NCBI GenBank assembly: GCA_016840465.1
Contig: JAEOSH010000014.1
Location: 1 to 32,000, forward strand
Direction: 5' to 3'
Source: Candidatus Baldrarchaeum yapensis
GTDB lineage: Archaea > Asgardarchaeota > Baldrarchaeia > Baldrarchaeales > Baldrarchaeaceae
Length of the DNA: 32,000 nt
Made by a program: the position numbers and the translations under genes. This document shows, one piece after another, positions 13,638 through 30,531 of this stretch (the first letter of the stretch is position 1; every line of letters starts with the position of its first letter). The notes below the pieces were generated by a model. It was not told the DNA's origin and searched no databases. It was given only the letters and a program-made list of their open reading frames with translations.

Positions 13638-13891
13638 CAACAATCTGACAGTCTGCTCCCGCGGGTTCTGTCATGTTTTCAGTCTTTCCATCAGCAGGTC
13701 AACGTACCGCTCCGGTTGTGCCTCCCTTTCTATTATTAAAACTCCGAATAAGTCCCCGAACCTCGCATGAGGATCTTGGGGTCCTCGGTCTCTATAAGGA
13801 ACGTCCTCTCGGCAGGCACTGCTCACGATGCTTATGAGGGAGGAGAGAAACTCGGGCGTTACTACAAGTAAAAAGTAAGGAATTGGACTGG

Positions 13892-14131
13892 TTACGTGCA
13901 TATTAGCGTTTCAGTGTGCTCTATCCCGTCGATTCGCCTGATCGCCGTGACCACCTTGTCAAGCTCCTGCATGCTCTGCACCTTTATTTTCACGATCATG
14001 TCCCAGGAGCCGTAGGTGACCCTCACCTCCTCTACGCCCCTCATGCTCTTTATTTTCTCTCTGACGTCGTGCTCCATCCCTATCGACACTATGACCAGCA
14101 CGTACGCCTCTATTTCCTCACTCAAAACCAT
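13892..14131 (-). CDS. Stand-alone Lrp/AsnC ligand-binding (RAM) domain protein
   Basis: About 79 aa. AYVLVIV..GMEHDVREKI..GVEEVRVTYGSWDMIVKIKVQSMQELDKVV..IRRIDGIEHTETLI. No HTH domain. Confidence 0.92.
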   Translation of the reverse strand: MVLSEEIEAYVLVIVSIGMEHDVREKIKSMRGVEEVRVTYGSWDMIVKIKVQSMQELDKVVTAIRRIDGIEHTETLICT

Positions 14132-14403
14132 ACCCCCATATTGCAGTCCGACCATCAATTAGTACCTTATAATTAAAAACTTCCGGATGACGGCGCCTTT
14201 CGAGCATCTCCATTCGCGTTGCGGCAGTTCATGCTGAAGGTATGAGAATTGCAGTGCATGGGCCTCGGAGAACTGAAGCCGAAGCCACGTGATCCCTCAG
14301 CCTCTCCGGCCTCTAAAAAGATAAAGGGTCTTCCGATAAGTAAAGGTATAAATGTCTCCCCCTTTAATGGCACAGACCCGCGTGGAAACAAGGGAGTAGG
14401 AAT

Positions 14404-15609
14404 ATGAAGTACGACGACGTTCTGCTCAGAGTGATGAGGCGGGAAGAAAGTAGGGAGATCGAGGCAAGGGAGAGAGCGAGGAAAATCGAGGAGTTTGCGG
14501 AGAGTTTGGGACTCAACGGGTTTGTTAGGGAAATGCGGAAAAATCGCACGATCCTCACAACCTACGTACAGGATTACGATGTTCAGAGGAGGCTCTACGC
14601 CTCATCTGCGCGCGACGCTAGGGGTTCAAAGGAGGGGGATGAGGAGAATCTCGCTCTCTTCAGGGATGTGCTGATGCTCCTGATGGGAGAGCAGGAACAA
14701 ATTCACCCGGAGGCCGCGGAGAGGTTCAGATGGCGCCCTCCTGAGTTCTTCATAAGAAGGATGTCGTACGACGATGCCTACGTGGTAGTGATGAGGGACG
14801 AGGACTCCCCCTTCTACATATTCTCGGTGCTTCGCGCGGGTGAAACCCTCGCAACCGGGGTTCTTGATCAGGCAGATGCGTACCTGATCTTCTGGAACAG
14901 GGTTCCGCCGGAGGTCGTAATCGCATCCGCATACATCCATGTGAGGTCGCTGGTGACCGAATTGCTGGATGCAATGCCACGGGAACTTCTCACGGCCACG
15001 GGGATAAGGTCGATAGAGGTCCGTGAACACATGAAGTTTCCATACCTGAGAGTTCACTTCTCCGATGGGAAGAGCGTTGATATTGGAATAAACCTAGAGG
15101 ATCTATCCTTACTGCTGAATGGAATGAGAAGAAGCGTGGCGCAGGAAATAGTATGTCGAGCGGTGACGGAGCGAGGACATGTGGAGGTTAAGGGACAAAA
15201 CTATAGGGTGGAATTCAAAAGGCGGGATCATGGCTGGCTTGTTCTCCTAACGATGCCGGGAAGGTCCGTAGAGGGAGTCTTGAACTGTAAATTCATAGAC
15301 GGGGATCTGCTGTTCTCCGCAAGTAGGGGGCTGGAGGACCTCGCGTTAGACCTAGTAGATCTACTACTAAGGGTGGGGGGAGTGATTCAGGCAACCGACG
15401 GCACCGAAATAGAGGTGGACATTTCCGCACATGTACCCTGGTGCTTCATCAGGTTGGACATCGGCGGGATGATGCTCGAATACAAGGCCGTGGCATCGGG
15501 TTTTGGGAGAAAGAACGTAATGAACGTGCTGAAAGAAATACTGCTCGGAAACATCACAAGATCTTCCATCCCGAAGATACTCTCGAGCCGCGGTTTTTCA
15601 AGAACCTGA
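14404..15609 (+). CDS. Hypothetical protein (401 aa)
   Basis: Long ORF with RBS-like GGGAGTAGG and upstream TATAAA near 14346-14351. Charged helical N-terminus followed by alternating beta/alpha segments. No family recognised. Confidence 0.8.
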   Translation: MKYDDVLLRVMRREESREIEARERARKIEEFAESLGLNGFVREMRKNRTILTTYVQDYDVQRRLYASSARDARGSKEGDEENLALFRDVLMLLMGEQEQIHPEAAERFRWRPPEFFIRRMSYDDAYVVVMRDEDSPFYIFSVLRAGETLATGVLDQADAYLIFWNRVPPEVVIASAYIHVRSLVTELLDAMPRELLTATGIRSIEVREHMKFPYLRVHFSDGKSVDIGINLEDLSLLLNGMRRSVAQEIVCRAVTERGHVEVKGQNYRVEFKRRDHGWLVLLTMPGRSVEGVLNCKFIDGDLLFSASRGLEDLALDLVDLLLRVGGVIQATDGTEIEVDISAHVPWCFIRLDIGGMMLEYKAVASGFGRKNVMNVLKEILLGNITRSSIPKILSSRGFSRT

Positions 15610-17094: not shown

Positions 17095-18198
17095 CTAGGT
17101 AACCACGCTGCCGAGCGCCTCTTTCTCTATAGCCTCCCGTATCTCTATCGCTATCCTCCGCCCCATGCTGATCGGCTCACCAAAGTAAAACTTGCTGTAC
17201 TGACTGCCAACGCCCGCGTAGATGTTGGTGCCCCCACCGATCCGAAACGCCACGTCCACAACGTAGATCTTCAAATCGGAAGTAACTATCGATTGAAGGG
17301 TAAACGGACCAATTATCCCGGGAGGATACAACTCCTTAGCCGCCCTCACAAACGCATCCCCCATCTCGAAAACCTTCTGGAGTTGCGACTCCCTTATCGT
17401 CGCCGGCATGTGCCCTATCTCCACATTACGCACAACCACGTCCAAGTCCATCTGGATGAACGCTGGCAACCTGACGAGCCCGTGAACGTTCGTCTGCAAC
17501 CTCCTATCTATCCCGTGAAACTCAACATCGCCTCTCACAACCGAGTGGAAATAATTGAAGTTGAAATCGACACCCACCACAAACTCCTCTATCGACGCCC
17601 TCCTCAACTCCTCCTCTTCCAGTAAACCCCTCTCCATGAAGTCCCTCGCCTTCCTCCAGAAGTCCTTCGAATTCCTCGCAATGAAGAACGCCCTCTCCAC
17701 AGAACCGGCCGCCATGGCCTTCACGATGACCGGTCTGTCTATCTCATCGGGAGACTTGAAGGTCTTGGGCCTGAGAATTCCGGCAGCATCAAGTATCTTG
17801 TAGTAGTTGACTTCCCCGTACCTCTCCTCCGCCCTCAATAACTGACGAGACCCGAAAATCGGAACGTAGAACTCCTCCTCTATGCTCTCGTACCCGACGT
17901 ACACAGAAAAACTTCTGTTCGGAACGAAAATCGTGTTCAGCTTCCTCAACTTGTCCTGAACGTTCTCCCTTATAATGTCCCGGAACCTCTCCAAAACTAT
18001 GACCTCGTCCGCAAGCCTCCTAAACCTGAGGTACGGAAGCTCCCTCCCCTTCTGGCAAATAACAACAGTCTTGAAACCCTCGTCCTTCGCTCCGTCCAGA
18101 ACGTCGAGCGCCGAGTGGCTTCCCAGCACCCCTATGTGTATGTTCTCCCAATCGTATTCCTTCTCCACAAGGGCCGCCATCTCACGGGGGGAAATCAT
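17095..18198 (-). CDS. PurP-like ATP-grasp formate ligase, divergent paralog
   Basis: GVLGSHSALDVLDGAKDEGF, VPNRSF (where canonical PurP has PHGSF), VERAFF, RRLQTNVHG, IRESQL, GPFTLQ, RIGGGTN, ISMGRRIA. Confidence 0.88.
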   Translation of the reverse strand: MISPREMAALVEKEYDWENIHIGVLGSHSALDVLDGAKDEGFKTVVICQKGRELPYLRFRRLADEVIVLERFRDIIRENVQDKLRKLNTIFVPNRSFSVYVGYESIEEEFYVPIFGSRQLLRAEERYGEVNYYKILDAAGILRPKTFKSPDEIDRPVIVKAMAAGSVERAFFIARNSKDFWRKARDFMERGLLEEEELRRASIEEFVVGVDFNFNYFHSVVRGDVEFHGIDRRLQTNVHGLVRLPAFIQMDLDVVVRNVEIGHMPATIRESQLQKVFEMGDAFVRAAKELYPPGIIGPFTLQSIVTSDLKIYVVDVAFRIGGGTNIYAGVGSQYSKFYFGEPISMGRRIAIEIREAIEKEALGSVVT

Positions 18199-18207
18199 AA
18201 AACCACC

Positions 18208-19227
18208 TCACGTGAGCACCTTATCGAGCATCCCATGCTCCTCCGCCATCCTTATCTCGCGCGCAATCCTCCGGCCCATGCTCATCGGCTCATCAAAATA
18301 CAGCCAACTGTAGGGGGAACCGTTGATATAAAGGTTGGTGCCCGCAACTATCCTGCCTGAAAACTCAAAAATAACAATTTCGAGATCGCTCCGGCATACT
18401 CCCTCCAGACAGAAGGGACCAATAACGCCCGGCGGCACAAGTTCCTCTGCTGCCCTTACAAATCCTTCGCCGTACTCGAACACCTTTACGAGGAGGGACT
18501 CCCGAACGACAAGAGGTATGTTTCCGACAACCGTAAAGGTGGGCTCACTCAAACTATCGGCATACGGAACGGGCACCCTTCTCAGCCCATCCACATCACT
18601 CTCATACCTTATATCGCACCCTAAAAGCTCTAGGCGTTTCATAACAACCGAGTTAAAGTACTGAAAATACATGGGCGTGCCAATCACAAACTCCTGAATT
18701 ATGCACTCATCCGGCGAAATGCCAAGACTTTTGCACTTCGAAATAACCTCCTCCGGAGACCTCGCAAGAAAGTATCCTCGCCCACCTTTCGCCCCGTGCA
18801 TCTTAACAATTACGAGCCGGTCCACCTCCTCCGGAGACCTAAAAACCCTGGGCACCTTCACACCAGATCGCTCCAGCATTCTCATCTTGAGAAACTGATC
18901 CGCCTCCCAAATCATAAGCCGCCTGTTACCGAAGATCGGAACATCCAACCTCTCAAGACCTTCAACACCAATGTACTCAACAAAACTGCCATGCGGAACT
19001 ATAACTGCGCCCTCCTCGTTTAACCTCCTGATGGCCTCATCGCTGCAAACGTCCCCCATCCCATCAATCAACACAATATCGTCAATGAAGTTCAAAAATC
19101 GAGAATACAGCGAAACTCTATCCCTAGGACACAAAACTATGGTCTTAAAGCCCTCACTCTTCGCACCCCTCAGTATCTGCAATGCACTGTGGCTCGCAAT
19201 CGTCGCAATACTCCGCACTTCCCGCAT
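18208..19227 (-). CDS. purP: FAICAR synthetase (formate-dependent AICAR formylation)
   Basis: ATIASHSALQIL, VPHGSFVEY, GAKGGRGYF, RYESDVDG, GNIPLVVRESLL, GPFCLE, RIVAGTN, MSMGRRIAREI. Confidence 0.92.
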   Translation of the reverse strand: MREVRSIATIASHSALQILRGAKSEGFKTIVLCPRDRVSLYSRFLNFIDDIVLIDGMGDVCSDEAIRRLNEEGAVIVPHGSFVEYIGVEGLERLDVPIFGNRRLMIWEADQFLKMRMLERSGVKVPRVFRSPEEVDRLVIVKMHGAKGGRGYFLARSPEEVISKCKSLGISPDECIIQEFVIGTPMYFQYFNSVVMKRLELLGCDIRYESDVDGLRRVPVPYADSLSEPTFTVVGNIPLVVRESLLVKVFEYGEGFVRAAEELVPPGVIGPFCLEGVCRSDLEIVIFEFSGRIVAGTNLYINGSPYSWLYFDEPMSMGRRIAREIRMAEEHGMLDKVLT

Positions 19228-19759: not shown

Positions 19760-20518
19760 GTGCGCCCGAAAGTATTACAGTTGATAACTGAAGGCAAGAC
19801 CAAAAAGGTGTGGGAAACCGAAAATCCCGATCTTGTCATCTTGGAATTCAAAGACGATATCACTGCGTTTGATGGAGCAAAGCATGATGTCATCAGCGGA
19901 AAAGGCGCAATAAACGCCGCAATTTCAGCCAAAATTTTCGAACATCTGAACAAAAACGGAATTCCAACACATTTTGTCGAGTTTGTGGCACCCCGCTACC
20001 ACGTCGTAAGACGACTAGAAATGATACCACTCGAGGTGGTATGCCGAAACATAGCCACCGGGCACCTCGTGAAAAGACTACCCATGATAAAGGACGGAAC
20101 GCGCCTCGAGTTCCCGGTACTGGAGTTCTACCTCAAAGATGACAAACTCCACGACCCCCTCATAAACGACCACCACGTCGTCCTGCTAAAGCTGGCATCT
20201 TGGAAGGAAATAGAAGAAATGAAAAAGATAACACTCCGGGTAAATGAAGTGTTGCGCACGTTCTTCGAGGAAAGAGGGCTTATTCTCGTAGACTTCAAAC
20301 TCGAGTTCGGAAGAGACCGCAATGGAAAACTCCTCGTGGGCGACGAACTGAACGGAGATGCAATGCGGATCTGGGACATGTACACCGGGAAGATACTCGA
20401 TAAGGACGTGTACCGGAAGGGATACCCCCTCGACGAAGTGCTCGTGCGATACCGCGAATTTTACAGGAGAGTGGTGGGCGCAGACTTTCCGGGGGAGGAA
20501 GTATGCCTCGCTACATAG
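19760..20518 (+). CDS. purC: SAICAR synthetase
   Basis: EGKTKKVW, FKDDITAFDG, MIPLEVVCRN, EFYLKDDKLHDP, LVDFKLEFG, GDELNGDAMRIWD, DKDVYR. Confidence 0.97.
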   Translation: MRPKVLQLITEGKTKKVWETENPDLVILEFKDDITAFDGAKHDVISGKGAINAAISAKIFEHLNKNGIPTHFVEFVAPRYHVVRRLEMIPLEVVCRNIATGHLVKRLPMIKDGTRLEFPVLEFYLKDDKLHDPLINDHHVVLLKLASWKEIEEMKKITLRVNEVLRTFFEERGLILVDFKLEFGRDRNGKLLVGDELNGDAMRIWDMYTGKILDKDVYRKGYPLDEVLVRYREFYRRVVGADFPGEEVCLAT

Positions 20519-20769
20519 TCGAGGTCCTCATTGAAAACAAGAAGACAATACGGGATCCCGAGGGCGAAACCATCTGCCGGGAACTCATCAATAAGGGAGG
20601 ATACGACAGCATAAAGTCCGTAAGGGTCGGCAAACTCCTGAGGATGGAAGTCGAGGGATCCAGCGAGGAGGAAGTGAAGGAACTCGTGACCAGAATGTGC
20701 AACGACCTCAGAATCTACAACCCCGTCGTCCACTCCTATAGGGTGGAAATCAGAGGGATCACACGGTGA
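20503..20769 (+). CDS. purS: FGAM synthetase subunit PurS
   Basis: RDPEGETI, VRVGKLL, IYNPVVHSY. Lies between purC and purQ with overlapping ends. Confidence 0.95.
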   Translation: MPRYIVEVLIENKKTIRDPEGETICRELINKGGYDSIKSVRVGKLLRMEVEGSSEEEVKELVTRMCNDLRIYNPVVHSYRVEIRGITR

Positions 20770-21470
20770 GAGTCGCCGTTATCCGGTTTCCCGGATCAAA
20801 CTGCGACCTGGACACAGTATTCGTCCTCAGGAAGGTAATAGGCGTGAAAGCCGACCTCGTGTGGCACAAGAACTTCAAAGGAGACTACGACGCAGTGATA
20901 CTGCCAGGCGGTTTCTCGTACGGGGATTACCTGCGTGCGGGAATCATCGCGGCCCACAGCCCCGCAATGAAGTACGTCAAGGAAATGGCGCGTGAGGGAC
21001 TACCGGTTCTGGGCATCTGCAATGGATTCCAAATACTGATAGAGGCGGGACTTCTCCCGGGAGCGCTGATAAGAAACACGACACTGAAGTTCATATGCAA
21101 ATGGGTTTTCCTGAAGGTCAAAACCACGCGCACCGCCTTCTCCAACCTCATGAAAAGAGAGCAGGTTCTGAAGATGCCGATCGCGCACAACGAGGGGAGG
21201 TACTTCATAGACGAGAAGGGGCTGAGGGAACTCATGGAGAACGACCAGATAGTCTTCACATACGTTGATGGGGAGGGCAACGAGACCCCGAACGCGAACC
21301 CCAACGGTTCCGTTGCAAACATCGCCGGGGTCTGCAATCTAGAGGGAAACGTCGTAGGGCTGATGCCACACCCCGAAAGGGCCTCGGAAGCCATCCTGAG
21401 CCCCTACGGAAGCGACGACGGAAAACTTCTGTTCCTTTCCATGAAAAACTTTCTCGAGAGGTGGATGTGA
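20766..21470 (+). CDS. purQ: FGAM synthetase glutaminase subunit
   Basis: FPGSNCD, LPGGFSYGDYLRAG, LGICNGFQIL, PIAHNEGRY, GLMPHPERA. Confidence 0.97.
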   Translation: MRVAVIRFPGSNCDLDTVFVLRKVIGVKADLVWHKNFKGDYDAVILPGGFSYGDYLRAGIIAAHSPAMKYVKEMAREGLPVLGICNGFQILIEAGLLPGALIRNTTLKFICKWVFLKVKTTRTAFSNLMKREQVLKMPIAHNEGRYFIDEKGLRELMENDQIVFTYVDGEGNETPNANPNGSVANIAGVCNLEGNVVGLMPHPERASEAILSPYGSDDGKLLFLSMKNFLERWM

Positions 21471-23710
21471 TGATAGTAGAGCGGCCCGACATGCAGGTTA
21501 AGGTCAACCTCACAAGGGAGGAGCTGGAAAAGGCAAAAGAGATGCTCGGGCGGGAACCCAACATTGTCGAACTCGGAATGATAGACATCATGTGGAGCGA
21601 ACACTGCTCCTACAAGTCCTCCCGGGAAGTCCTGAAAATCCTGCCTAGGGAGGGGGAACACGTAATCATAGGGCCGGGACAGGACGCCGGCGTCGTGGAT
21701 ATAGGAAACGGGCTCGCGGTAGTTTTCAAGATAGAATCTCACAACCACCCCTCTGCGGTGGACCCCTACAACGGAGCCGCAACCGGAGTTGGAGGAATAA
21801 TAAGGGACATCCTCTGCATGGGCGCCCGCCCCATCGCCCTCGTCGACTCCCTCAGGTTCGGATTCCCCTCCAGCCCCCACGCCAGGTGGCTGTTCAGATA
21901 CGTCGTTAAGGGAATCGCAGATTACGGAAACTGCACCGGGATTCCAACGGTAGCAGGTCAGGTGGAGTTTGACCCCTCCTTCGAGAGAAATTGCCTTGTC
22001 AACGTCGGCTGCGTGGGAATTGCAAGGAAAGACAGAATAATGCCAAGCGTTGCCTCAAACCCTGGGGACGTCCTCGTCCTCGTCGGGGGCTCCACCGGAA
22101 GAGATGGAATCCACGGCGTCACCTTCGCATCCAAAACCCTCAGCGAAAAATCCGAGGAGGAGAGGTCCTCCGTACAAATAGGAGATCCCTTCATGAAAAA
22201 ACTGGTGATCGAGGCGACGCTGGAGGCCGTGGAGACGGGATATGTAAGGGGACTGAAGGATCTGGGAGGCGGAGGACTGACGTGCGCAACTTCCGAGATG
22301 GCCGCAAAGGGCGGAACCGGGGTGGAAATAGAACTTTCTAAGGTCCACCTCAGAGAGGAGGGAATGACCCCCTACGAGATAATGCTGAGCGAGTCGCAGG
22401 AGCGCATGCTCTTCGTTGTAGATCCAAAAGGTCTCGATAAAGTACTGTCGGTGTTCGAAAAGTACGAGATTCCGTACTCAATAATAGGAAGAGTCACCGA
22501 CACCAGAGAGGTCGTCGTCAAACTGAACGGAAAAGTGGTGGCGCGGGTTCCGGCAAAGCTACTTGCCGAAGCCCCCCTTGCAAAGCGCACATCTAAAAAG
22601 CCAGCATACGTCGAGAAGTTGCGTGACATACCACCTCCGCCAATGCCGGAAAACCTCGAAGAAACCCTTCCTCAACTCCTCTCATCACCTAACATTGCAA
22701 GTAAGGAGTGGGTATACCAGCAGTACGACCACGAGGTCGGAATAAGAACCGTAGTAAAGCCGGGACAGGCAGATGCAGCCGTCCTCAGAATCATAGAGGA
22801 AGATGGAGGAAACAGGGGAATCGCAATAAAGGCTGACTGCAACTCGAGGCATATGTATCTGGATCCGTTCAACGGCGCCGCCGGTGCTCTGGCAGAATGC
22901 TGCAGGAATATAGTTGCAGTTGGAGGAAAACCACTGGCCTTTGTCGACTGCGCAAACTTTGGCAACCCCGAAAAACCCGAAATATTCTGGCAGTTCGAAA
23001 TGGCAATCAAGGGTCTCGCATACATGGCCCGAGGTCTGGGAATACCATGCGTGGGCGGAAATGTCAGCTTCTACAATGAAGATGAAACCACAGGGAGGGC
23101 GGTGAAACCGAGCACCGAGGTCCTAGCAATCGGGCTGGTTGAGGACCTCAAACACGTGACAACAATGGCATTCAAATCTGCGGGAGACGTAATCGTCGTG
23201 GTGGGTAAGACCTTCAGAGAGGTGGGCGGATCGGAATACTACTACATAGTCCACGGGATAGAGGGAGGAAAAGTACCCGCTGCCGATCCGAATAGGGAGA
23301 AGTCCTCCATGAACGCCGTTTTGGAGGGAATAAGGCGCGGATACGTCACCGCTGCTCATGACATTTCGAGAGGGGGATTTGCGGTCGCGCTCGCAGAAAT
23401 GGCAATCCAAGGAGGAAGAGGAGCGGAGGTCTTCTTGGACAATATGCCGCGGGAACCCATGCGCATCGACGAACTCCTCTACTCGGAGAGCAACGCAAGA
23501 TTCATCATCACGGTCGAGGAAAAAAACCTCGATAACTTCATATCACTATGCCGCAACACCGGCGCACCCTTCGGGATAATTGGAAGGGTTTCGAGAAGTA
23601 ACAGGCTCATTCTCAGGTACGAGAGCCTTGTTCTCGAGTATGATGTCCACCACCTGGAGAAAGCTTGGAAGATGCCAATATGGGAGTACATGGAGGGGCT
23701 GCGCTCGTGA
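21470..23710 (+). CDS. purL: FGAM synthetase large subunit (small-type PurL)
   Basis: MWSEHCSYKSS, KIESHNHPSAVDPYNGAATGVGG, DLGGGGL, MLSESQERM, WVYQQYDH, GGNVSFYNE. ATG overlaps the purQ TGA (TGATG). Confidence 0.97.
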   Translation: MIVERPDMQVKVNLTREELEKAKEMLGREPNIVELGMIDIMWSEHCSYKSSREVLKILPREGEHVIIGPGQDAGVVDIGNGLAVVFKIESHNHPSAVDPYNGAATGVGGIIRDILCMGARPIALVDSLRFGFPSSPHARWLFRYVVKGIADYGNCTGIPTVAGQVEFDPSFERNCLVNVGCVGIARKDRIMPSVASNPGDVLVLVGGSTGRDGIHGVTFASKTLSEKSEEERSSVQIGDPFMKKLVIEATLEAVETGYVRGLKDLGGGGLTCATSEMAAKGGTGVEIELSKVHLREEGMTPYEIMLSESQERMLFVVDPKGLDKVLSVFEKYEIPYSIIGRVTDTREVVVKLNGKVVARVPAKLLAEAPLAKRTSKKPAYVEKLRDIPPPPMPENLEETLPQLLSSPNIASKEWVYQQYDHEVGIRTVVKPGQADAAVLRIIEEDGGNRGIAIKADCNSRHMYLDPFNGAAGALAECCRNIVAVGGKPLAFVDCANFGNPEKPEIFWQFEMAIKGLAYMARGLGIPCVGGNVSFYNEDETTGRAVKPSTEVLAIGLVEDLKHVTTMAFKSAGDVIVVVGKTFREVGGSEYYYIVHGIEGGKVPAADPNREKSSMNAVLEGIRRGYVTAAHDISRGGFAVALAEMAIQGGRGAEVFLDNMPREPMRIDELLYSESNARFIITVEEKNLDNFISLCRNTGAPFGIIGRVSRSNRLILRYESLVLEYDVHHLEKAWKMPIWEYMEGLRS

Positions 23711-23721
23711 TTTCTAAATGC

Positions 23722-25140
23722 ATGGAGAAATGCGGCGTCATAGGAGTATATTCTAGGAACGCCGGAGACTCTCAGTGTGCCAGGAGAATATATGAGGGGC
23801 TCGTCGCACTGCAACATAGGGGGCAGGAGAGCGCGGGAATCTACATGTTTAGCGGAGATGGGAGGATAGCGGGGATCAAGGGATCGGGGCTCGTCACGGA
23901 GGTATTCAGCGCCAAGAGCCTAGAGTTGCTAAAGGGATCAGTGGGAATAGGACACGTCAGATATAGCACAACGGGTACCGGAACCACCGATGAAATCCAA
24001 CCGTTCTTCGTGAGAGAGGGAAGGTTCTCATTCGCCCTCGCGTTCAACGGGACGATTACGAACTTTGCAGAAGTGCGGAAGTGGCTCAGAAATCAAGGAT
24101 TTTACTTCAAAACCAACACGGACACCGAGGTGCTTGCAAAAACAATAGCGTTCTATCTCTCCGAAGAGGGCTATGACTACTTCGCGGCACTCGAAAGAAC
24201 CATGGAGGCGCTGGACGGGGCTTTCTCGGTAGTGCTTATCAACGAGAAGGGAGAGATGCTGGGGATGAGAGATCCCAGGGGATTCAAACCTCTGTGCCTC
24301 GGAGCAACATCGGATCCAGAAATGTACATCTTAGCTTCCGAGAGCGTCGCAATAGACGCCCTGCATGGTTTCCTCCTCGGCGACGTCTACCCAGGTGAGA
24401 TTATCAGAATATCGGACGGCGTTGTCGAACGAAAAGTTGCGTGCAAGTCAGAAAAACACTCCCACTGCATGTTCGAGTACGTCTACTTTGCAAGGGAAGA
24501 CTCCATAATCGAGGGGATCCATGTATACAATGTCAGGTGGAGACTAGGAGCTATACTCTCAGAACTGTATCCCACCGACGCAGACTACGTAATACCCGTT
24601 CCGGACACGGGAATAGTCCCCGCCATAGGATTCTCCCAAGCCTCAGGAATTCCGCTGGCTTACGGCCTCGTGAGGAACAAGTACGTTGGGCGCACGTTCA
24701 TAATGCCACAGCAACAGATGAGGGAGGGAGCGGTCCGGGTAAAACTCGGGGTCATAAGATCAGTGGTTTCGGGGAAAAGGATGGTGGTCGTCGATGACAG
24801 CATCGTCAGGGGAACCACCTCCAAGTTCATCGTAGAACTCCTGAAAAGCTTCAACGCGGCAAAGGTGCACCTCAGAATCTGCTGCCCGCCCATAGTCTCC
24901 CCGTGCTACATGGGAATAGACTTCCCATCCCATAAGGAACTCATAGCATCCAAGATGGACGTGGAAGGTGTCAGGAGGTTCATAGGAGCCGATTCCCTTG
25001 GCTACATGACAATAGACGGGCTTGTCCGCGGAATCGGACTTCCAAAGGGAGAGTTGTGTTTGGCGTGCCTCACCGGGGAATACCCGCTAAAGCGCCCGGA
25101 GGATGTCGACAAGCTGGAGGAGATATTCAAGAGGGGGTGA
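23722..25140 (+). CDS. purF: Amidophosphoribosyltransferase, catalytic Cys intact, Fe-S type
   Basis: MEK-CGVIG, LQHRGQESAG, GHVRYST, AFNG, TDTE, CMFEYVYFAR, VVDDSIVRGTT, Fe-S Cys in PCYMGID and CLAC. GTG 23707 is an alternative start. Confidence 0.96.
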   Translation: MEKCGVIGVYSRNAGDSQCARRIYEGLVALQHRGQESAGIYMFSGDGRIAGIKGSGLVTEVFSAKSLELLKGSVGIGHVRYSTTGTGTTDEIQPFFVREGRFSFALAFNGTITNFAEVRKWLRNQGFYFKTNTDTEVLAKTIAFYLSEEGYDYFAALERTMEALDGAFSVVLINEKGEMLGMRDPRGFKPLCLGATSDPEMYILASESVAIDALHGFLLGDVYPGEIIRISDGVVERKVACKSEKHSHCMFEYVYFAREDSIIEGIHVYNVRWRLGAILSELYPTDADYVIPVPDTGIVPAIGFSQASGIPLAYGLVRNKYVGRTFIMPQQQMREGAVRVKLGVIRSVVSGKRMVVVDDSIVRGTTSKFIVELLKSFNAAKVHLRICCPPIVSPCYMGIDFPSHKELIASKMDVEGVRRFIGADSLGYMTIDGLVRGIGLPKGELCLACLTGEYPLKRPEDVDKLEEIFKRG

Positions 25141-25144
25141 TGTT

Positions 25145-26479
25145 TTGAGCGGGATTTTCGGAATTTTCGCGTTTGATGAGATATGGCGCGTTTCCAAATT
25201 CGTATATTACGGACTCCTGGCCCTCCAAACAAGAGGCCAGGAGGTTTGTGGAATAGCGTGTGGAGGATCGGACGGAATAGTAACATGTGCAAAGAGGGGC
25301 TACGTCGATCAATCCTTCAAGGAGAATGAGTTAGAAGGAATAGGCGGATGGTACGGCATCGGCTACGTGGGCGCGGACCCCCAAAATGTACAACCCGTGA
25401 CGGTCCGCCATAACGGCATCACCGTTTCCGTCTGCTATTCCGGGAGAATATTTAACCTGCGGGAGCTCACGAAAAGGTACAATCTCCCGGAAAAGGAAAA
25501 CGAAAGCATACTGTTTGCGAAGATTCTGGCATCGGAAGTTAGAAAGAGTGGTCCCATGAACGCCGCCGCGCTTCTGATGGAAGAACTTGAGGGTGTGTAC
25601 ACGGTGCTGGCAATAACAGACCAAAAGGAGATGGTTGCCTTCAGAGATTCACATGGCGTGAAGCCGCTGACAATCGGGAGTTATGGATTCGATTATGGAG
25701 CAATAGCATCCGAAAGCGCAGGACTAGAAGTCATAGGCGCCGACTACAAGTCCGACATCATGCCAGGCGAGATATACCTCTTTACAAGCTACAGCATAGA
25801 AAGAGAGCAGGTGAGAGCTCCACAACCGAAATACTGCGCATTCGAGTACGTGTACTACGCCCGCCCCGACTCCATAATAAACGAGAAGTCGGTGTACGAT
25901 GTAAGGGTGAAAATAGGCGAGTACCTCGCAAAGGAGAGCCCCGTTGACGTGGATGTTGTCGTAGGTGTGCCTGAAACGGCAATACCCTTCGCAATGGCGT
26001 ATTCAAATGCCACCGGAACACCCATAGCCATGGGATTCATGAGAACGGGGCGCCACACAAGAACCGCAATAAAGCCCACGTACTTCGAGAGACTCGTGGG
26101 GGTGCAGCTGAAGCTTAACCCCATAAAGAGCGTGTTCTCCGGCAAAAGGGTCCTGATAATCGACGACAGCGTCGTGAGGGGAACCACAATGAAGAACGTA
26201 ATACACCTTCTCAGAAACAAGATGGGGGCCAAGGAGGTGCATGTGAGGATCGGTAGCCCCCGACTCGTGAACCCCTGCCCCTACGGAACCGAGGTCCCCA
26301 CCCGCGACGAACTGATAGCCGCAAACCTGAGCGAGGAGGAGGTCGCAATAGTCACCGGCGCGGACTCCTTCAAGTGGCTCTCGATAGACTCCCTCATCAA
26401 AGCGATCGGATTTCCACGCGAGTACCTCTGCCTTAGGTGTTTTGGAGGTGATGGGGATGAAGGTCCTACTCATAGGTAG
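25145..26479 (+). CDS. purF: PurF paralog lacking the glutaminase catalytic residues
   Basis: TTG start after GGGGTGA gives M-S-G-I-F-G (Ser instead of Cys1). QTRGQ, GYVGA and YSG replace QHRGQ, GHVRY and FNG. PRPP motif IIDDSVVRGTT and Fe-S Cys (CAFEYVY, PCPYG, CLRC) are retained. Confidence 0.88.
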   Translation: MSGIFGIFAFDEIWRVSKFVYYGLLALQTRGQEVCGIACGGSDGIVTCAKRGYVDQSFKENELEGIGGWYGIGYVGADPQNVQPVTVRHNGITVSVCYSGRIFNLRELTKRYNLPEKENESILFAKILASEVRKSGPMNAAALLMEELEGVYTVLAITDQKEMVAFRDSHGVKPLTIGSYGFDYGAIASESAGLEVIGADYKSDIMPGEIYLFTSYSIEREQVRAPQPKYCAFEYVYYARPDSIINEKSVYDVRVKIGEYLAKESPVDVDVVVGVPETAIPFAMAYSNATGTPIAMGFMRTGRHTRTAIKPTYFERLVGVQLKLNPIKSVFSGKRVLIIDDSVVRGTTMKNVIHLLRNKMGAKEVHVRIGSPRLVNPCPYGTEVPTRDELIAANLSEEEVAIVTGADSFKWLSIDSLIKAIGFPREYLCLRCFGGDGDEGPTHR

Positions 26480-27932
26480 TGGATCACGTGAGCACGCAAT
26501 TGCGGACGCCCTTGCCAGAAGCGTGCATGAGCCGAAGATTTTCGCAGTAATGTCAAATAGAAATCCCGGCATTATCAGGATCTGTGAGAGCACGGGAGGA
26601 GAGTACTTCATCGGAAAGATCACAGACCCCCAATTTGTCAGAGAAATAGGAGAAAGAGTATCCCCCGACTTCGCGTTCATCGGACCGGAAGAACCCCAGT
26701 TCCATGGAGTATCCGATGCACTTGAGGAGGCGGGCATTCCGTGTGTCGGCGCAAGGGAGAAACTTAGTGAGATAGAGAGGTCGAAGGCATTCATGAGGAG
26801 GCTCATGTGGAAGTACAGGATACCCGGAAGGCTAAGGTTCAAAGCATTCAAGAACGTGGAGGAGGCGATCGCCTACATCAAGGAGTACGCCGAAAGCATC
26901 GCACTAAAGCCGGCAAGGCAGGCGGGAGGCAAGGGAGTCAAGGTGATCGCGGACATACAGGCGTACCTCAGGAGGGAGAGGACCGAGGTCAAGGAGAAGC
27001 ATGCAAAGAAGATCTACGAGGAGCACATGAAACCGTACGACGACATAGAGGACAAAATACTGATAGAGGAGAAGGTCGACGGGCCGGAGTACACCCTCCA
27101 GTGCTTCACCGATGGAAGGACGGTGCTCCCCCTGCCCCTGGTCCAAGACAATAAGAACGCCTTCGAGATGGACATAGGGCCGGAAACCGGCGGGATGGGG
27201 TCGATATCGGGGAAGGGCTTTCTACTACCATTCATTGAGGAGGATGAGTTCCGAGAGTCAGTGAAAATAGTGGAATCCGTGGTGAGGGCCCTAGAGAAGG
27301 AGTTCGGCATGAGATATCACGGCGTGATCTCCGGTCAGATGATGCTCACCGCCCTCTGGGGACCCACGATCATAGAATTCTATTCCCGGTTCGGAGACCC
27401 CGAGGGCGTGAACGTCCTCCCGATACTCAAAACCGACCTCGTCGAAATATCCGAGGCAGTAATCTCGGAGAAACTCCACAAGATGAAGATAGAGGTGGAG
27501 GAGAAGGCAACCGTCGTCAAGGCAATAGCCCCTCAGGGATACCCCAACAGGAGAGATCTCGCAAAGGGGCACCCGATAGCCGTGGACGAAAGGGCAATAG
27601 AGGAGCAGGGAGCAAGGGTCTTCTACGGCTCCGTGAACGTCGATAACGGAAGGTTGATAACTGGTGGCTCACGCGCCGTGGAGATATTCGCATGCGCCGA
27701 AACAATAGAGGAGGCGAGCAAGATCGTGGATAAATGCGTTAAGTACGTTAGATGCCTGGACGGATGGGGGCTCTTCTACAGAAGTGACATAGGCTCGAGC
27801 ACCCTCCTGCACAGGAGAATGGAACTCGCAGAGCTGGTGAGGAACGTCTACCGCTACAGGAGGTCCAAGGGCATCATCGGGATCAAGATAGACTGGATTC
27901 CCGGAGTTGGAAAAATAGTGTACGAGAGCTGA
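26457..27932 (+). CDS. purD: Phosphoribosylamine-glycine ligase
   Basis: MKVLLIGSGSREHAIA, IGPEEP, KPARQAGGKGV, EEKVDGPEY, QDNK..GPETGGMG, EFYSRFGDPE. ATG 26457 follows GGAGGTGA. Confidence 0.96.
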   Translation: MKVLLIGSGSREHAIADALARSVHEPKIFAVMSNRNPGIIRICESTGGEYFIGKITDPQFVREIGERVSPDFAFIGPEEPQFHGVSDALEEAGIPCVGAREKLSEIERSKAFMRRLMWKYRIPGRLRFKAFKNVEEAIAYIKEYAESIALKPARQAGGKGVKVIADIQAYLRRERTEVKEKHAKKIYEEHMKPYDDIEDKILIEEKVDGPEYTLQCFTDGRTVLPLPLVQDNKNAFEMDIGPETGGMGSISGKGFLLPFIEEDEFRESVKIVESVVRALEKEFGMRYHGVISGQMMLTALWGPTIIEFYSRFGDPEGVNVLPILKTDLVEISEAVISEKLHKMKIEVEEKATVVKAIAPQGYPNRRDLAKGHPIAVDERAIEEQGARVFYGSVNVDNGRLITGGSRAVEIFACAETIEEASKIVDKCVKYVRCLDGWGLFYRSDIGSSTLLHRRMELAELVRNVYRYRRSKGIIGIKIDWIPGVGKIVYES

Positions 27933-27943
27933 GGTGCGTGGCA

Positions 27944-29026
27944 ATGGCTAAGGATAGGGTTAGGGTTGCAGCGATCCAGATATACATGCACGGGGTCCCG
28001 AGCGAGGAGAGGTGGAGAAAGCACATCCACTGGATGAATGAGGCGGTGAGGCTCGGTGCGGACCTCATATGCACGACGGAGTTTTTCCTGGGAGGCGAAA
28101 CTTACTGGAGAAAGGAGAGAATAGAGTTCTTCAGGAACTTCTGCAAAGAGAATGGGGTGTACGTCGCGGCGCACTCCTACCAGAGGGTCAAGTTGGATGG
28201 AGACAAGCGGGTGACCAAGAGCAGAATAATATTCTTCGCCCCCGGTGGCGAAATCATCGGAACCTTCGACAAAGTGCATCTCTACCCCACCGATGTCCAC
28301 TTGGCACGCGCGACGCAGGGTACCGACTTCCCGGTGTTCGACACCAAAATTGGAAAAATAGGGTTTGGGGTCTGCGAAGACCTCATGATCCCGGAACACA
28401 TACGATGCCTCAGGTCAAGAGGCGCCGAAATAGTGATAATCCCGAGCAGAATGCCGGGGAACTATCTCGTCTGCTGGAAGGATGTCGCAGTTGTGAGGGC
28501 AATAGAGAGCTGCGTCTACATAGTGACAATAGGGGAGGCGGGAATGCACGCGGTGGGGACCCTCGCGGTGAGCCCGCGCCTCGATAATCCAATAGTTGCC
28601 GAAATGGGTCCCCACGAGGGCGTGATGATCGCAGACCTGGATCTCGCATGGCTCAGGTCCGAGCGCAATCGGAAACCAGTACTCGATCAACTCAGGAAAA
28701 AGGAGGATGTCGAGGAACTTTCCGTGAAGACGAAGGTCCACGACTTCGTTTTTAGGCTTGAGGACTGGCAACCTGAGCTGTACATTCCGGTGTACGCGGC
28801 GGCAAGCATCGACAAGAGGGTCAGGATGTTTTCGGAGAAGGGGATATGGGTCGAAAGGGAGGTTGTGGAGAGGTTGCTGGACACCTACAGCCGACTGATG
28901 ACTGTGGTAGCCCAAATAGAGGAGATCGCTGACGAGAACCTCAAGGTGCGGCTGCCATCGATCGCGGTAATAAAAAGCGATTTTGAATTCTTAAAACGCC
29001 TCTTAGAGGTGCTGAAGGGTGAGTGA
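27944..29026 (+). CDS. Carbon-nitrogen hydrolase (nitrilase superfamily) with C-terminal extension
   Basis: RVAAIQ start, catalytic triad Glu (CTTEFF), Lys (FDKVHLY), Cys (GVCEDL), [23 protein letters not shown]. About 66 extra C-terminal residues. Confidence 0.9.
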
Positions 29027-29465
29027 GGAGATAGAAGTCGCAATAGTAATGGGAAGTAAAAGTGATGAGCACGTTGCCAAAAAGGCGGCTGACGCCCTTT
29101 CTGAGTTGGGGATAAAGTACGAAGTTAAGATCCTTTCCGCCCACAGAAACCCCGATGAACTGCGTGAATACATCAGAAAATGCAAAGCTAAGGTTTTCAT
29201 CGCAATAGCCGGGCTTTCGGCACACCTTCCCGGATTCATAGCATCACACACCGATAAACCGGTGATAGGAGTCCCCGTTAACGTACAACTCGGCGGACTC
29301 GATGCCCTTCTTTCCATGGTCCAGATGCCCCCGGGTGTGCCAGTAGCGACCGTGGGAATAGACAATGGCAGAAACGCCGCACTTCTCGCCGCAAGAATAC
29401 TCGCATTGTTCGATGAAAGGATAAAGAGAAAGTTGGAGGAGGCGAAAAGTGAGAGGAGAGGGTAG
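29019..29465 (+). CDS. purE: N5-CAIR mutase / AIR carboxylase
   Basis: [65 protein letters not shown]. Confidence 0.97.
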
Positions 29466-30531
29466 CGGGTGGACGTACGCAAAAGCGGGTGTCGATGAAG
29501 GGAAGGTTTCCAAAGCCTTATCCGGAGTTTGGAAGATGCTCATAGAGACCTTTGATTTTAGAAAGGGAAGAAAAGCTCACCCCTTGAACGTGATAGGGCA
29601 CTACGCTGGACTATTAGATGTGGGAACGGACGTCCTGCTGGCATTGCACGTAGACGGAGTGGGCTCAAAGGTTCTAGTGGCGCAAATGCTGAACAAATAC
29701 GACACGGTGGGTATAGACCTCGTGGCGATGCACGCAAACGACCTCATATCGATAGGGGCCGAGCCGGTGGCACTCGTAGATTACCTAGCTGTTAAGGAAC
29801 CCGACGAGCAACTCATCCAAGAAGTCATGAAGGGAGTCGTGGAAGGGGCAAAGATCGCGAGAATGTGCGTGATAGGAGGAGAAACGGCGGTATTGCCAGA
29901 CGTAATCACCGGATACGAGAGCGGCAAGCCATTTGACCTTTCGGGGATGAGCCTGGGCGTCGTTGAGAGGGATAAGGTCATACTGGGAGATAAGGTCGAG
30001 GTGGGAGACGCCGTGATAGGGCTCGCGAGCAGTGGGATCCACTCCAACGGTCTCACACTTGCAAGGAGGGTTCTCTTCGAGGAGGCGAAAATACCACCCT
30101 CCGCGTACATTGAGGAGTTGAGGAAAACACTAGGGGAGGAGTTACTCACTCCCACGAGGATATACGTTGACGAGGTGCTGAGCATTTTAGAAAGCGGAAT
30201 AGAAGTTCACGGGCTGGCGCACATAACGGGTGGCGCGTTCACAAAGCTGAAGAGGATCTCGAGAGGAAGGGTCAGGATAAGGCTGGATAAGATGCCGGAG
30301 CCTCAGCCGATATTTAAGATGATACAGCGCCTGGGAAATGTCGAAACGGAGGAAATGTACAGGACGTTCAATATGGGAATCGGATTCGTAATAGTGGCGC
30401 CGCGGCGGGAGATTGAGAACATATCATCGGTACTGGAGGAAAAGAGAACTACATACTACGTCCTTGGCCGAGTTGAAAGCGGATCCGACATCGTCATAAG
30501 AGCGTATGATGGAACCCTCATTGTTTTCTGA
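29449..30531 (+). CDS. purM: AIR synthetase (phosphoribosylformylglycinamidine cyclo-ligase)
   Basis: [64 protein letters not shown]. Confidence 0.97.

Follow-up and report, generated by a model that had tools for sequence, protein, structure and literature searches.

A nitrilase-superfamily amidase gene at the purD/purE junction of an Asgard archaeal purine operon, with a possible role at GAR formylation

The window analysed here, a stretch of 32,000 nt from contig JAEOSH010000014.1 of Candidatus Baldrarchaeum yapensis, contains a purine biosynthesis operon in which a gene designated NIT lies between purD and purE (Table 1). The host genome, an Asgard MAG of 96% completeness that occurs in hydrothermal sediment samples, was the only representative of its family and genus in the comparison. 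NIT starts 11 nt downstream of the purD stop codon (nt 27930-27932), preceded by a Shine-Dalgarno-like motif, GAGGTG, that spans this stop, and its own stop codon TGA (nt 29024-29026) falls within the start region of purE (GTG at nt 29019), a start backed by the homologous N-terminus MS..(V/L)AI..GSKSD in genome G042. With an 11-nt spacer on one side and an 8-nt overlap on the other, NIT is operonic and translationally coupled to both purD and purE. The likely start of the purF' paralogue is a TTG codon directly after the purF stop. An initial annotation had described NIT as operonic with its own ribosome binding site, had pointed to a Cys-less PurF' and two PurP-family ligases, and had noted that NIT belongs to no canonical pur step; all of this was borne out, with Ser replacing the Ntn Cys in PurF'. 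The order purL-F-F'-D-NIT-E-M was identical in a separate assembly, ERZ27227320, and seven copies at least 99% identical were obtained from separate sources, so the locus is not an assembly artefact. The presence of NIT between purD and purE in an Asgard pur operon is thus confirmed.

Table 1. Positions of NIT, its parts and the surrounding pur genes in the window, and of selected genes at other loci
Feature	Position	Strand	Remarks
NIT (P0001)	27944..29026	+	360-aa nitrilase-superfamily (CN_hydrolase) protein
purD (GAR synthetase)	26457..27932	+	upstream neighbour of NIT
purE	29019..29465	+	downstream neighbour of NIT
purM	29449..30531	+	
purF' paralogue	25145..26479	+	TTG start at 25145, MSGIFG, Ser replaces Ntn Cys
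purF	23680..25140	+	canonical, Cys retained
purC, purS, purQ, purL	19760..23710	+	purC at 19760-20518
Two tandem PurP-family formate-dependent ATP-grasp ligases	17095..19227	-	367 and 339 aa; divergently oriented upstream of the operon
purD-NIT spacer	27933..27943	+	11 nt; GAGGTG ribosome-binding motif spans the purD stop
NIT stop/purE start overlap	29019..29026	+	8 nt, GTGAGTGA
NIT catalytic alpha-beta-beta-alpha core	27962..28660	+	contains Glu46, Lys110, Asp117 and Cys144
Glu46	28079-28081	+	triad residue
Lys110	28271-28273	+	triad residue
Asp117	28292-28294	+	replaces the second Glu of the superfamily
Cys144	28373-28375	+	triad residue, motif VCEDL
NIT C-terminal tail	28799..29023	+	residues about 286-360, ~75 aa, three predicted helices
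HAD-like and PfkB pair	L067:9429-11454		genome G005 (family f3)
HAD-like and PfkB pair	L070:10836-12937		genome G060 (family f20)
HAD-like and PfkB	L068:11783-12889 and 13842-14783		genome G041 (family f15)
Small GTPase-type ORFs near NIT homologues	L019:2929-3465; L018:3339-3866; L017:5880-6413		

The NIT protein matched Pfam PF00795 (CN_hydrolase) over residues 7-239 (94.6 bits, E 8e-27, gathering cut-off 23.2). Its AF2 model (mean pLDDT 85.9, core mostly above 90) has a four-layer alpha-beta-beta-alpha sandwich, and the best 50 Foldseek matches in the PDB were all members of the nitrilase superfamily (probability 1.0). These matches were generic, comprising D-carbamoylase, N-carbamoylputrescine amidase, Nit2, Nit3 and amidases, and the look-alikes in the protein atlas were generic CN_hydrolases. 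In a 60-sequence alignment, Glu46, Lys110 and Cys144 occupied columns conserved in 60/60, 58/60 and 59/60 sequences, respectively; the E-K-C triad, with its nucleophile in VCEDL, is therefore intact, as had been read from the DNA at the outset. The superfamily's fourth catalytic residue is a second Glu in the Lys+7/+8 loop, hydrogen-bonded to the catalytic Lys. No Glu was found at residues 111-125 of NIT; Asp117 aligns there with Glu120 of the P. abyssi nitrilase 3IVZ and, in the clade described below, with the PWE-motif Glu. According to a passage of PMC6699081 citing Weber 2013, the equivalent change in the G. pallidus amidase, E142D, inactivates the enzyme, so that standard hydrolysis by NIT is not assured.

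The residue following the catalytic Cys is Glu solely in NIT among the 60 aligned sequences and Tyr in most homologues, and within NIT's own clade it is Q, H, N, I or E. Because of this variability, CEDL is not a NadE signature, and the initial proposal of a NadE-type motif was not upheld; with the NAD+ synthase model NF010588 the score was 24 bits (cut-off 479). None of the other NCBIfam equivalogs was approached either: best scores were 20-55 bits against cut-offs of 250-500, with 21.2 bits for formamidase NF009803 (cut-off 406), 55.5 and 51.8 bits for the Nit1/Nit2 models NF033621 and NF043013 (355 and 500), and 43.5 bits for N-carbamoylputrescine amidase (AguB) TIGR03381 (410). The best NCBIfam E-values stayed modest for the 59 nearest relatives of NIT as well. 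NIT is a stand-alone protein, unfused and unpaired, in which no synthetase domain was found. Long HMMER matches of 500-690 aa were considered as possible NadE proteins. Only about half of them have the Lys-Cys active-site pattern, in some cases C-terminal to the middle of the protein, and none furnished a NadE-type reference for CED.

When 1.84 billion cluster representatives were searched exhaustively with HMMER, only four proteins reached E<1e-30; the top one had 38% identity, and the C-terminal tail was covered by none of them. The tail, modelled by AF2 as helices 277-299, 305-328 and 338-359 with lower confidence than the core, matched no Pfam family at E<=10; no paralogue of it was found in the host genome and no homologue elsewhere, the sister clade included. 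The possibility that the tail is a relic of a displaced PurT C-terminus was rejected, given a BLASTP E of 0.21 and the lack of DNA similarity past the purE start. Relatives of the NIT locus were sought in metagenome contigs and genome contigs, and none was found.

The best PDB sequence matches were the Pyrococcus abyssi nitrilase 3IVZ, the P. horikoshii amidase PH0642 (6YPA), mouse Nit2 (2W1V) and yeast Nit3 (1F89), with E values of 1.7e-14 to 3e-12. NIT shares with them the fold and the Glu-Lys-Cys triad but is only 20-24% identical, has Asp in place of the second Glu, adds the roughly 75-aa helical tail and resides in a pur operon. In the maximum-likelihood tree NIT fell within a 12-member archaeal clade (support 100/100), as sister to P0009 (97/89). 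The other members belong to an uncharacterised group of CN_hydrolases, here called PWEP (P0003, P0007, P0008, P0009 and P0011-P0015), that groups with NIT at 100/100 and shares the motifs K-x-H-L-F-P-W-E, SRMP and LDL-x-WLR...H-x-F...RP-x-LY with it up to residue about 285. These proteins, of 273-357 aa, are at most about 38% identical to NIT, and none is encoded beside pur genes; they keep the second Glu at Lys+7, except for the divergent P0012, and none possesses the NIT tail.

No homologue with 42% identity or less adjoins pur genes. More distant clade members adjoin unrelated genes, namely those for Ras-like GTPases, ABC transporters, thiolase, URO-D and gamma-glutamyltranspeptidase. A Ras-family small GTPase gene lies immediately upstream of the homologue in G057 (f15) on the same strand, another lies about 3.5 kb from that in G027 (f17) on the opposite strand, and an unannotated ORF of similar size precedes the one in G049 (L018). 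In the sister clade, P0009 and relatives 83-84% identical to it are followed 7-14 nt downstream by a PfkB gene (L052, L072 and L073), and in L052 the P0009-type gene is preceded by that for a 349-aa protein homologous, via a protein of G041, to the HAD-like protein found after purD in other operons (see below). Five genomes of f3 and f20 have a PfkB in the pur operon that shares 39-47% identity with the linked PfkB and is its best match there, the other PfkBs of those genomes reaching at most 29%. As both the PfkB and the HAD-like types match occupants of the purD/purE slot, the sister clade of NIT keeps company with genes of the same slot.

Seven related Asgard operons with the arrangement purC-S-Q-L-F-F'-D-E all proceed without NIT. 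Six relatives from four families have purC-S-Q-L-F-F'-D followed directly by purE where the contig continues, and in G012 (f10) purN fills the slot after purD. The closest operon relative, in G042 (f19), has the order purD-purT-purE-purM-purP2-purP1, joined across two contigs, with a Ser-type PurF' and tandem PurPs that share 60-74% identity with those of the host. A divergent paralogue of Ftr, the formylmethanofuran-H4MPT formyltransferase, is encoded directly after purD in G015 (f13; L069:5688-6746) and after purD with one HAD-like gene between in G041 (f15; L068:12882-13841). Both paralogues score under the NCBIfam cut-offs, and both genomes lack PurN and PurT; the same extra copy is present in G025 and G057, no more than a few kb from purF, and a canonical Ftr is encoded elsewhere in all four genomes. 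The Ftr-like paralogue is put forward as a candidate for the missing archaeal GAR formyltransferase. In f3 and f20 the slot, here between purD or purF and purE, holds a HAD-like (SerB-like) protein of 350-390 aa and a PfkB resembling ribokinase and ribose-1-phosphate kinases; in G041 (f15) a homologue of the HAD-like protein occurs with a more distant PfkB. Genomes with this pair in the pur operon lack PurN, PurT, PurH and PurO.

NIT lies immediately after purD, as do purT, purN and the Ftr-like genes, to which it is unrelated in sequence and fold, having neither an ATP-grasp nor a folate-binding domain. The purD-NIT arrangement occurs in only one species-level lineage and one contig fragment, and NIT is a lineage-specific insertion at the purD/purE junction. 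Several features of the compared loci were recorded in passing. The purL ORF of G041 (L068:14796-17819) encodes 1007 aa, about 250 aa more than usual, which suggests an N-terminal fusion. An ArgE/DapE-family M20 deacylase gene follows the Ftr-like gene downstream of purD in G015 (L069:4378-5667), and its host homologue, 47% identical, is on contig C23 outside the pur operon. Comparison of L041-L047 revealed that PurF' is not uniformly Cys-less: the Cys is present in f8, f18 and f10 (e.g. EKCGVFG) and Val in f4, the Ser type (MSGI..) occurring in f19 and the host.

In the host genome, no PurN, PurT, PurH, PurO or FTHFS was found, nor a second Ftr copy, and the HAD-like protein and the slot type of PfkB are absent from it; PurB is present, and formate could already come from a PFL-like glycyl-radical enzyme that the genome encodes. 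A weak PurT-like tblastn match on contig C38 proved to be a LysX/RimK-type ATP-grasp gene beside argH, and an ATP-grasp gene on contig C19, next to an unannotated 355-aa ORF, was also rejected as PurT. From the slot survey and the missing enzymes, it follows that NIT occupies the slot used by relatives for GAR formylation, and that no GAR transformylase is recognised in the host genome. PurT was present in 1 of 61 genomes. Families f3, f13, f15 and f20 have PurF and PurP genes and lack PurN, PurT and a close NIT homologue; NIT is therefore not generally required, and another solution to step 3 must exist in these families. In G001-G004, the four other genomes of the host's order, which are 82-91% complete, no PurF, PurP, PurN or PurH was detected. 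The host operon is most like that of family f19, and it may have been acquired or differentially retained.

The fragment with the same junction is a 598-nt metagenome contig from ENA, L051 (ERZ584659 NODE_209725), from a diverged relative. Its PurD C-terminus is 86% identical to that of the host, 53 of 73 N-terminal NIT residues are identical, and the spacer is 10 nt long with the same ribosome-binding motif. Between the host and L051, pS was 0.78-0.89 (saturated), as against a pN of 0.07 for purD and 0.12 for NIT, and NIT matches the pur genes in GC, GC3 and codon usage. The conserved junction, the saturated pS beside a low pN and the matching codon usage show that the insertion is old and that NIT is under purifying selection. 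The last roughly 60 nt of this contig (L051:540-598) are Nextera adapter sequence, and the called 88-aa protein P0010 is consequently chimeric at its C-terminus. The initial annotation had held that a recent passenger gene should have homologues that are never pur-linked; homologues at 42% identity or below conform to this, the 73%-identical L051 fragment with its purD-NIT junction does not, and an old insertion is at odds with the recency of such an event.

PurF', duplicate PurPs, PurU within pur clusters and the missing GAR transformylase are already known (PMC3261824; PMC9012536), while no nitrilase-family gene in a pur operon is reported in the literature on archaeal purine genes. GAR formylation in archaea without PurN and PurT, and the source of formate for PurP- and PurT-type ligases, have been described as unsolved (PMC3261824; PMC9012536). 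In some archaea using formate-dependent ligases, PurU is encoded within the pur cluster (PMC3261824).

We consider it most likely, though with a probability of only about one in three, that NIT is a recruited thiol amidase serving the formylation of GAR, for which it would release formate and/or ammonia from a small amide. The Baldr-type Asgard lineage would have taken a divergent thiol amidase into the purD/purE junction of a conserved purC-S-Q-L-F-F'-D-E-M operon. Cys144 would attack a small amide (the likeliest substrates being an N-formyl compound or a formamide-like donor) to give a thioacyl enzyme from which formate plus an amine or NH3 would be released, and the formate would feed the two formate-dependent PurP-type ligases, which must perform the formylations because the host has no PurN, PurT or PurH. 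NIT might then be a functional analogue of PurU, the formyltetrahydrofolate deformylase of other pur clusters, which is likewise a formate-releasing hydrolase but has an unrelated fold and a folate substrate. Formate supply, and substitution for a step missing from the cluster, were among the roles suggested initially, and both are plausible: the position of NIT is the slot of purT (f19), purN (f10) and the Ftr-like genes (f13 and f15). What weakens both is that other Asgard families with PurP and without PurN or PurT do without NIT.

Almost as likely is an amidase unrelated to purines, serving Nit1/Nit2-type metabolite repair or nitrogen scavenging, that entered a recombination-prone junction and was kept since co-expression with pur genes was harmless or mildly useful. 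The nearest solved relatives by sequence, Nit2, Nit3 and the Pyrococcus amidases, are consistent with such an origin, as are the varied non-pur contexts of clade members, the many different genes that the purD/purE junction takes across families and the other Asgard genomes that manage without PurN, PurT and NIT. However, the tight two-sided translational coupling has been kept across synonymous saturation, the slot is otherwise filled mostly by pur-related genes (PurN, PurT and Ftr-like), and the sister clade is linked to the PfkB type of pur operons. This last link, and the HAD-like - NIT - PfkB arrangement of the sister clade, would also fit an accessory module linked to ribose or nucleosides, in which NIT together with the HAD-like protein and PfkB would act on a ribosyl-amide or ureido substrate to yield pentose phosphate or nitrogen. 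The HAD-like and PfkB pair does occupy the purD/purE slot of f3, f20 and f15, and this PfkB resembles ribokinase and ribose-1-phosphate kinases; but the host has neither partner, so NIT would have to act alone here, and the connection is a two-step one whose sister-clade side is a single lineage at 83-84% identity. We regard such a module as improbable.

Nitrilase-fold glutaminase domains occur in NAD synthetases, in which a Cys nucleophile delivers NH3 to a partner site. Together with the Ser in place of the Ntn Cys in PurF' and the location of NIT two genes downstream of purF', this would fit an ammonia donor, a glutaminase or amidase giving NH3 to the Ser-type PurF' or to a non-enzymatic or PurF-independent formation of phosphoribosylamine upstream of PurD. 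A glutaminase feeding PurF' had been the first proposal for this gene, and it fared poorly. A Ser-type PurF' occurs in f19 (G042) without a close NIT homologue, PurF' orthologues occur without NIT in 10 other genomes of five families (f4, f8, f10 and f18 among them), and the paralogue keeps its Cys in f8 and f18. A canonical, Cys-bearing PurF is encoded next door, the C-E-D motif is not diagnostic in NIT's clade, given the variable residue after the Cys, and the score with the NAD+ synthase model is low. Co-folding of NIT with PurF' gave an ipSAE of 0.01, which speaks neither for nor against an association. We regard a role as ammonia donor as unlikely.

Acyl transfer instead of hydrolysis is known for aliphatic amidases and Lnt. 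The title of a reference cited within PMC6699081 also points to acyl-transfer activity in nitrilase-superfamily amidases. NIT might accordingly replace PurT directly by non-orthologous displacement, as a thioformyl-enzyme transferase that would take formyl from an amide donor and pass it to the GAR amine. It lies exactly where the closest operon relative has purT, in a genome without PurN, PurT or a second Ftr copy, and Asp117, the Glu after the Cys and the new tail together suggest changed chemistry. However, no such enzyme is known, several Asgard genomes lack PurN, PurT and NIT alike (a PurP paralogue or the Ftr-like protein may serve there), and the NIT tail is not derived from PurT; of the alternatives considered, we hold this the least likely. 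In a broader form, NIT would be either a new kind of GAR-formylating enzyme or a formyl-handling partner that a PurP ligase requires, working through a thioformyl-Cys144, with purT displaced in situ, to which we give a small chance.

Recruitment to GAR formylation as a formate- or ammonia-releasing amidase thus remains our preferred reading. A near-identical operon carries purT in one family and an amidase, NIT, in another, a clean natural experiment, and no GAR transformylase is known from the NIT-bearing genome. Comparing the occupants of the slot added further candidates beside NIT, namely the Ftr-like paralogues and the HAD-like and PfkB pair. Should NIT prove unrelated to purines, it would still be a naturally occurring Glu-to-Asp change of the fourth catalytic residue in the nitrilase superfamily. 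If it were a formyltransferase or a PurP partner, it would solve the long-standing problem of the missing GAR transformylase in this lineage. NIT is a testable lead on purine synthesis in archaea that have neither PurN nor PurT.
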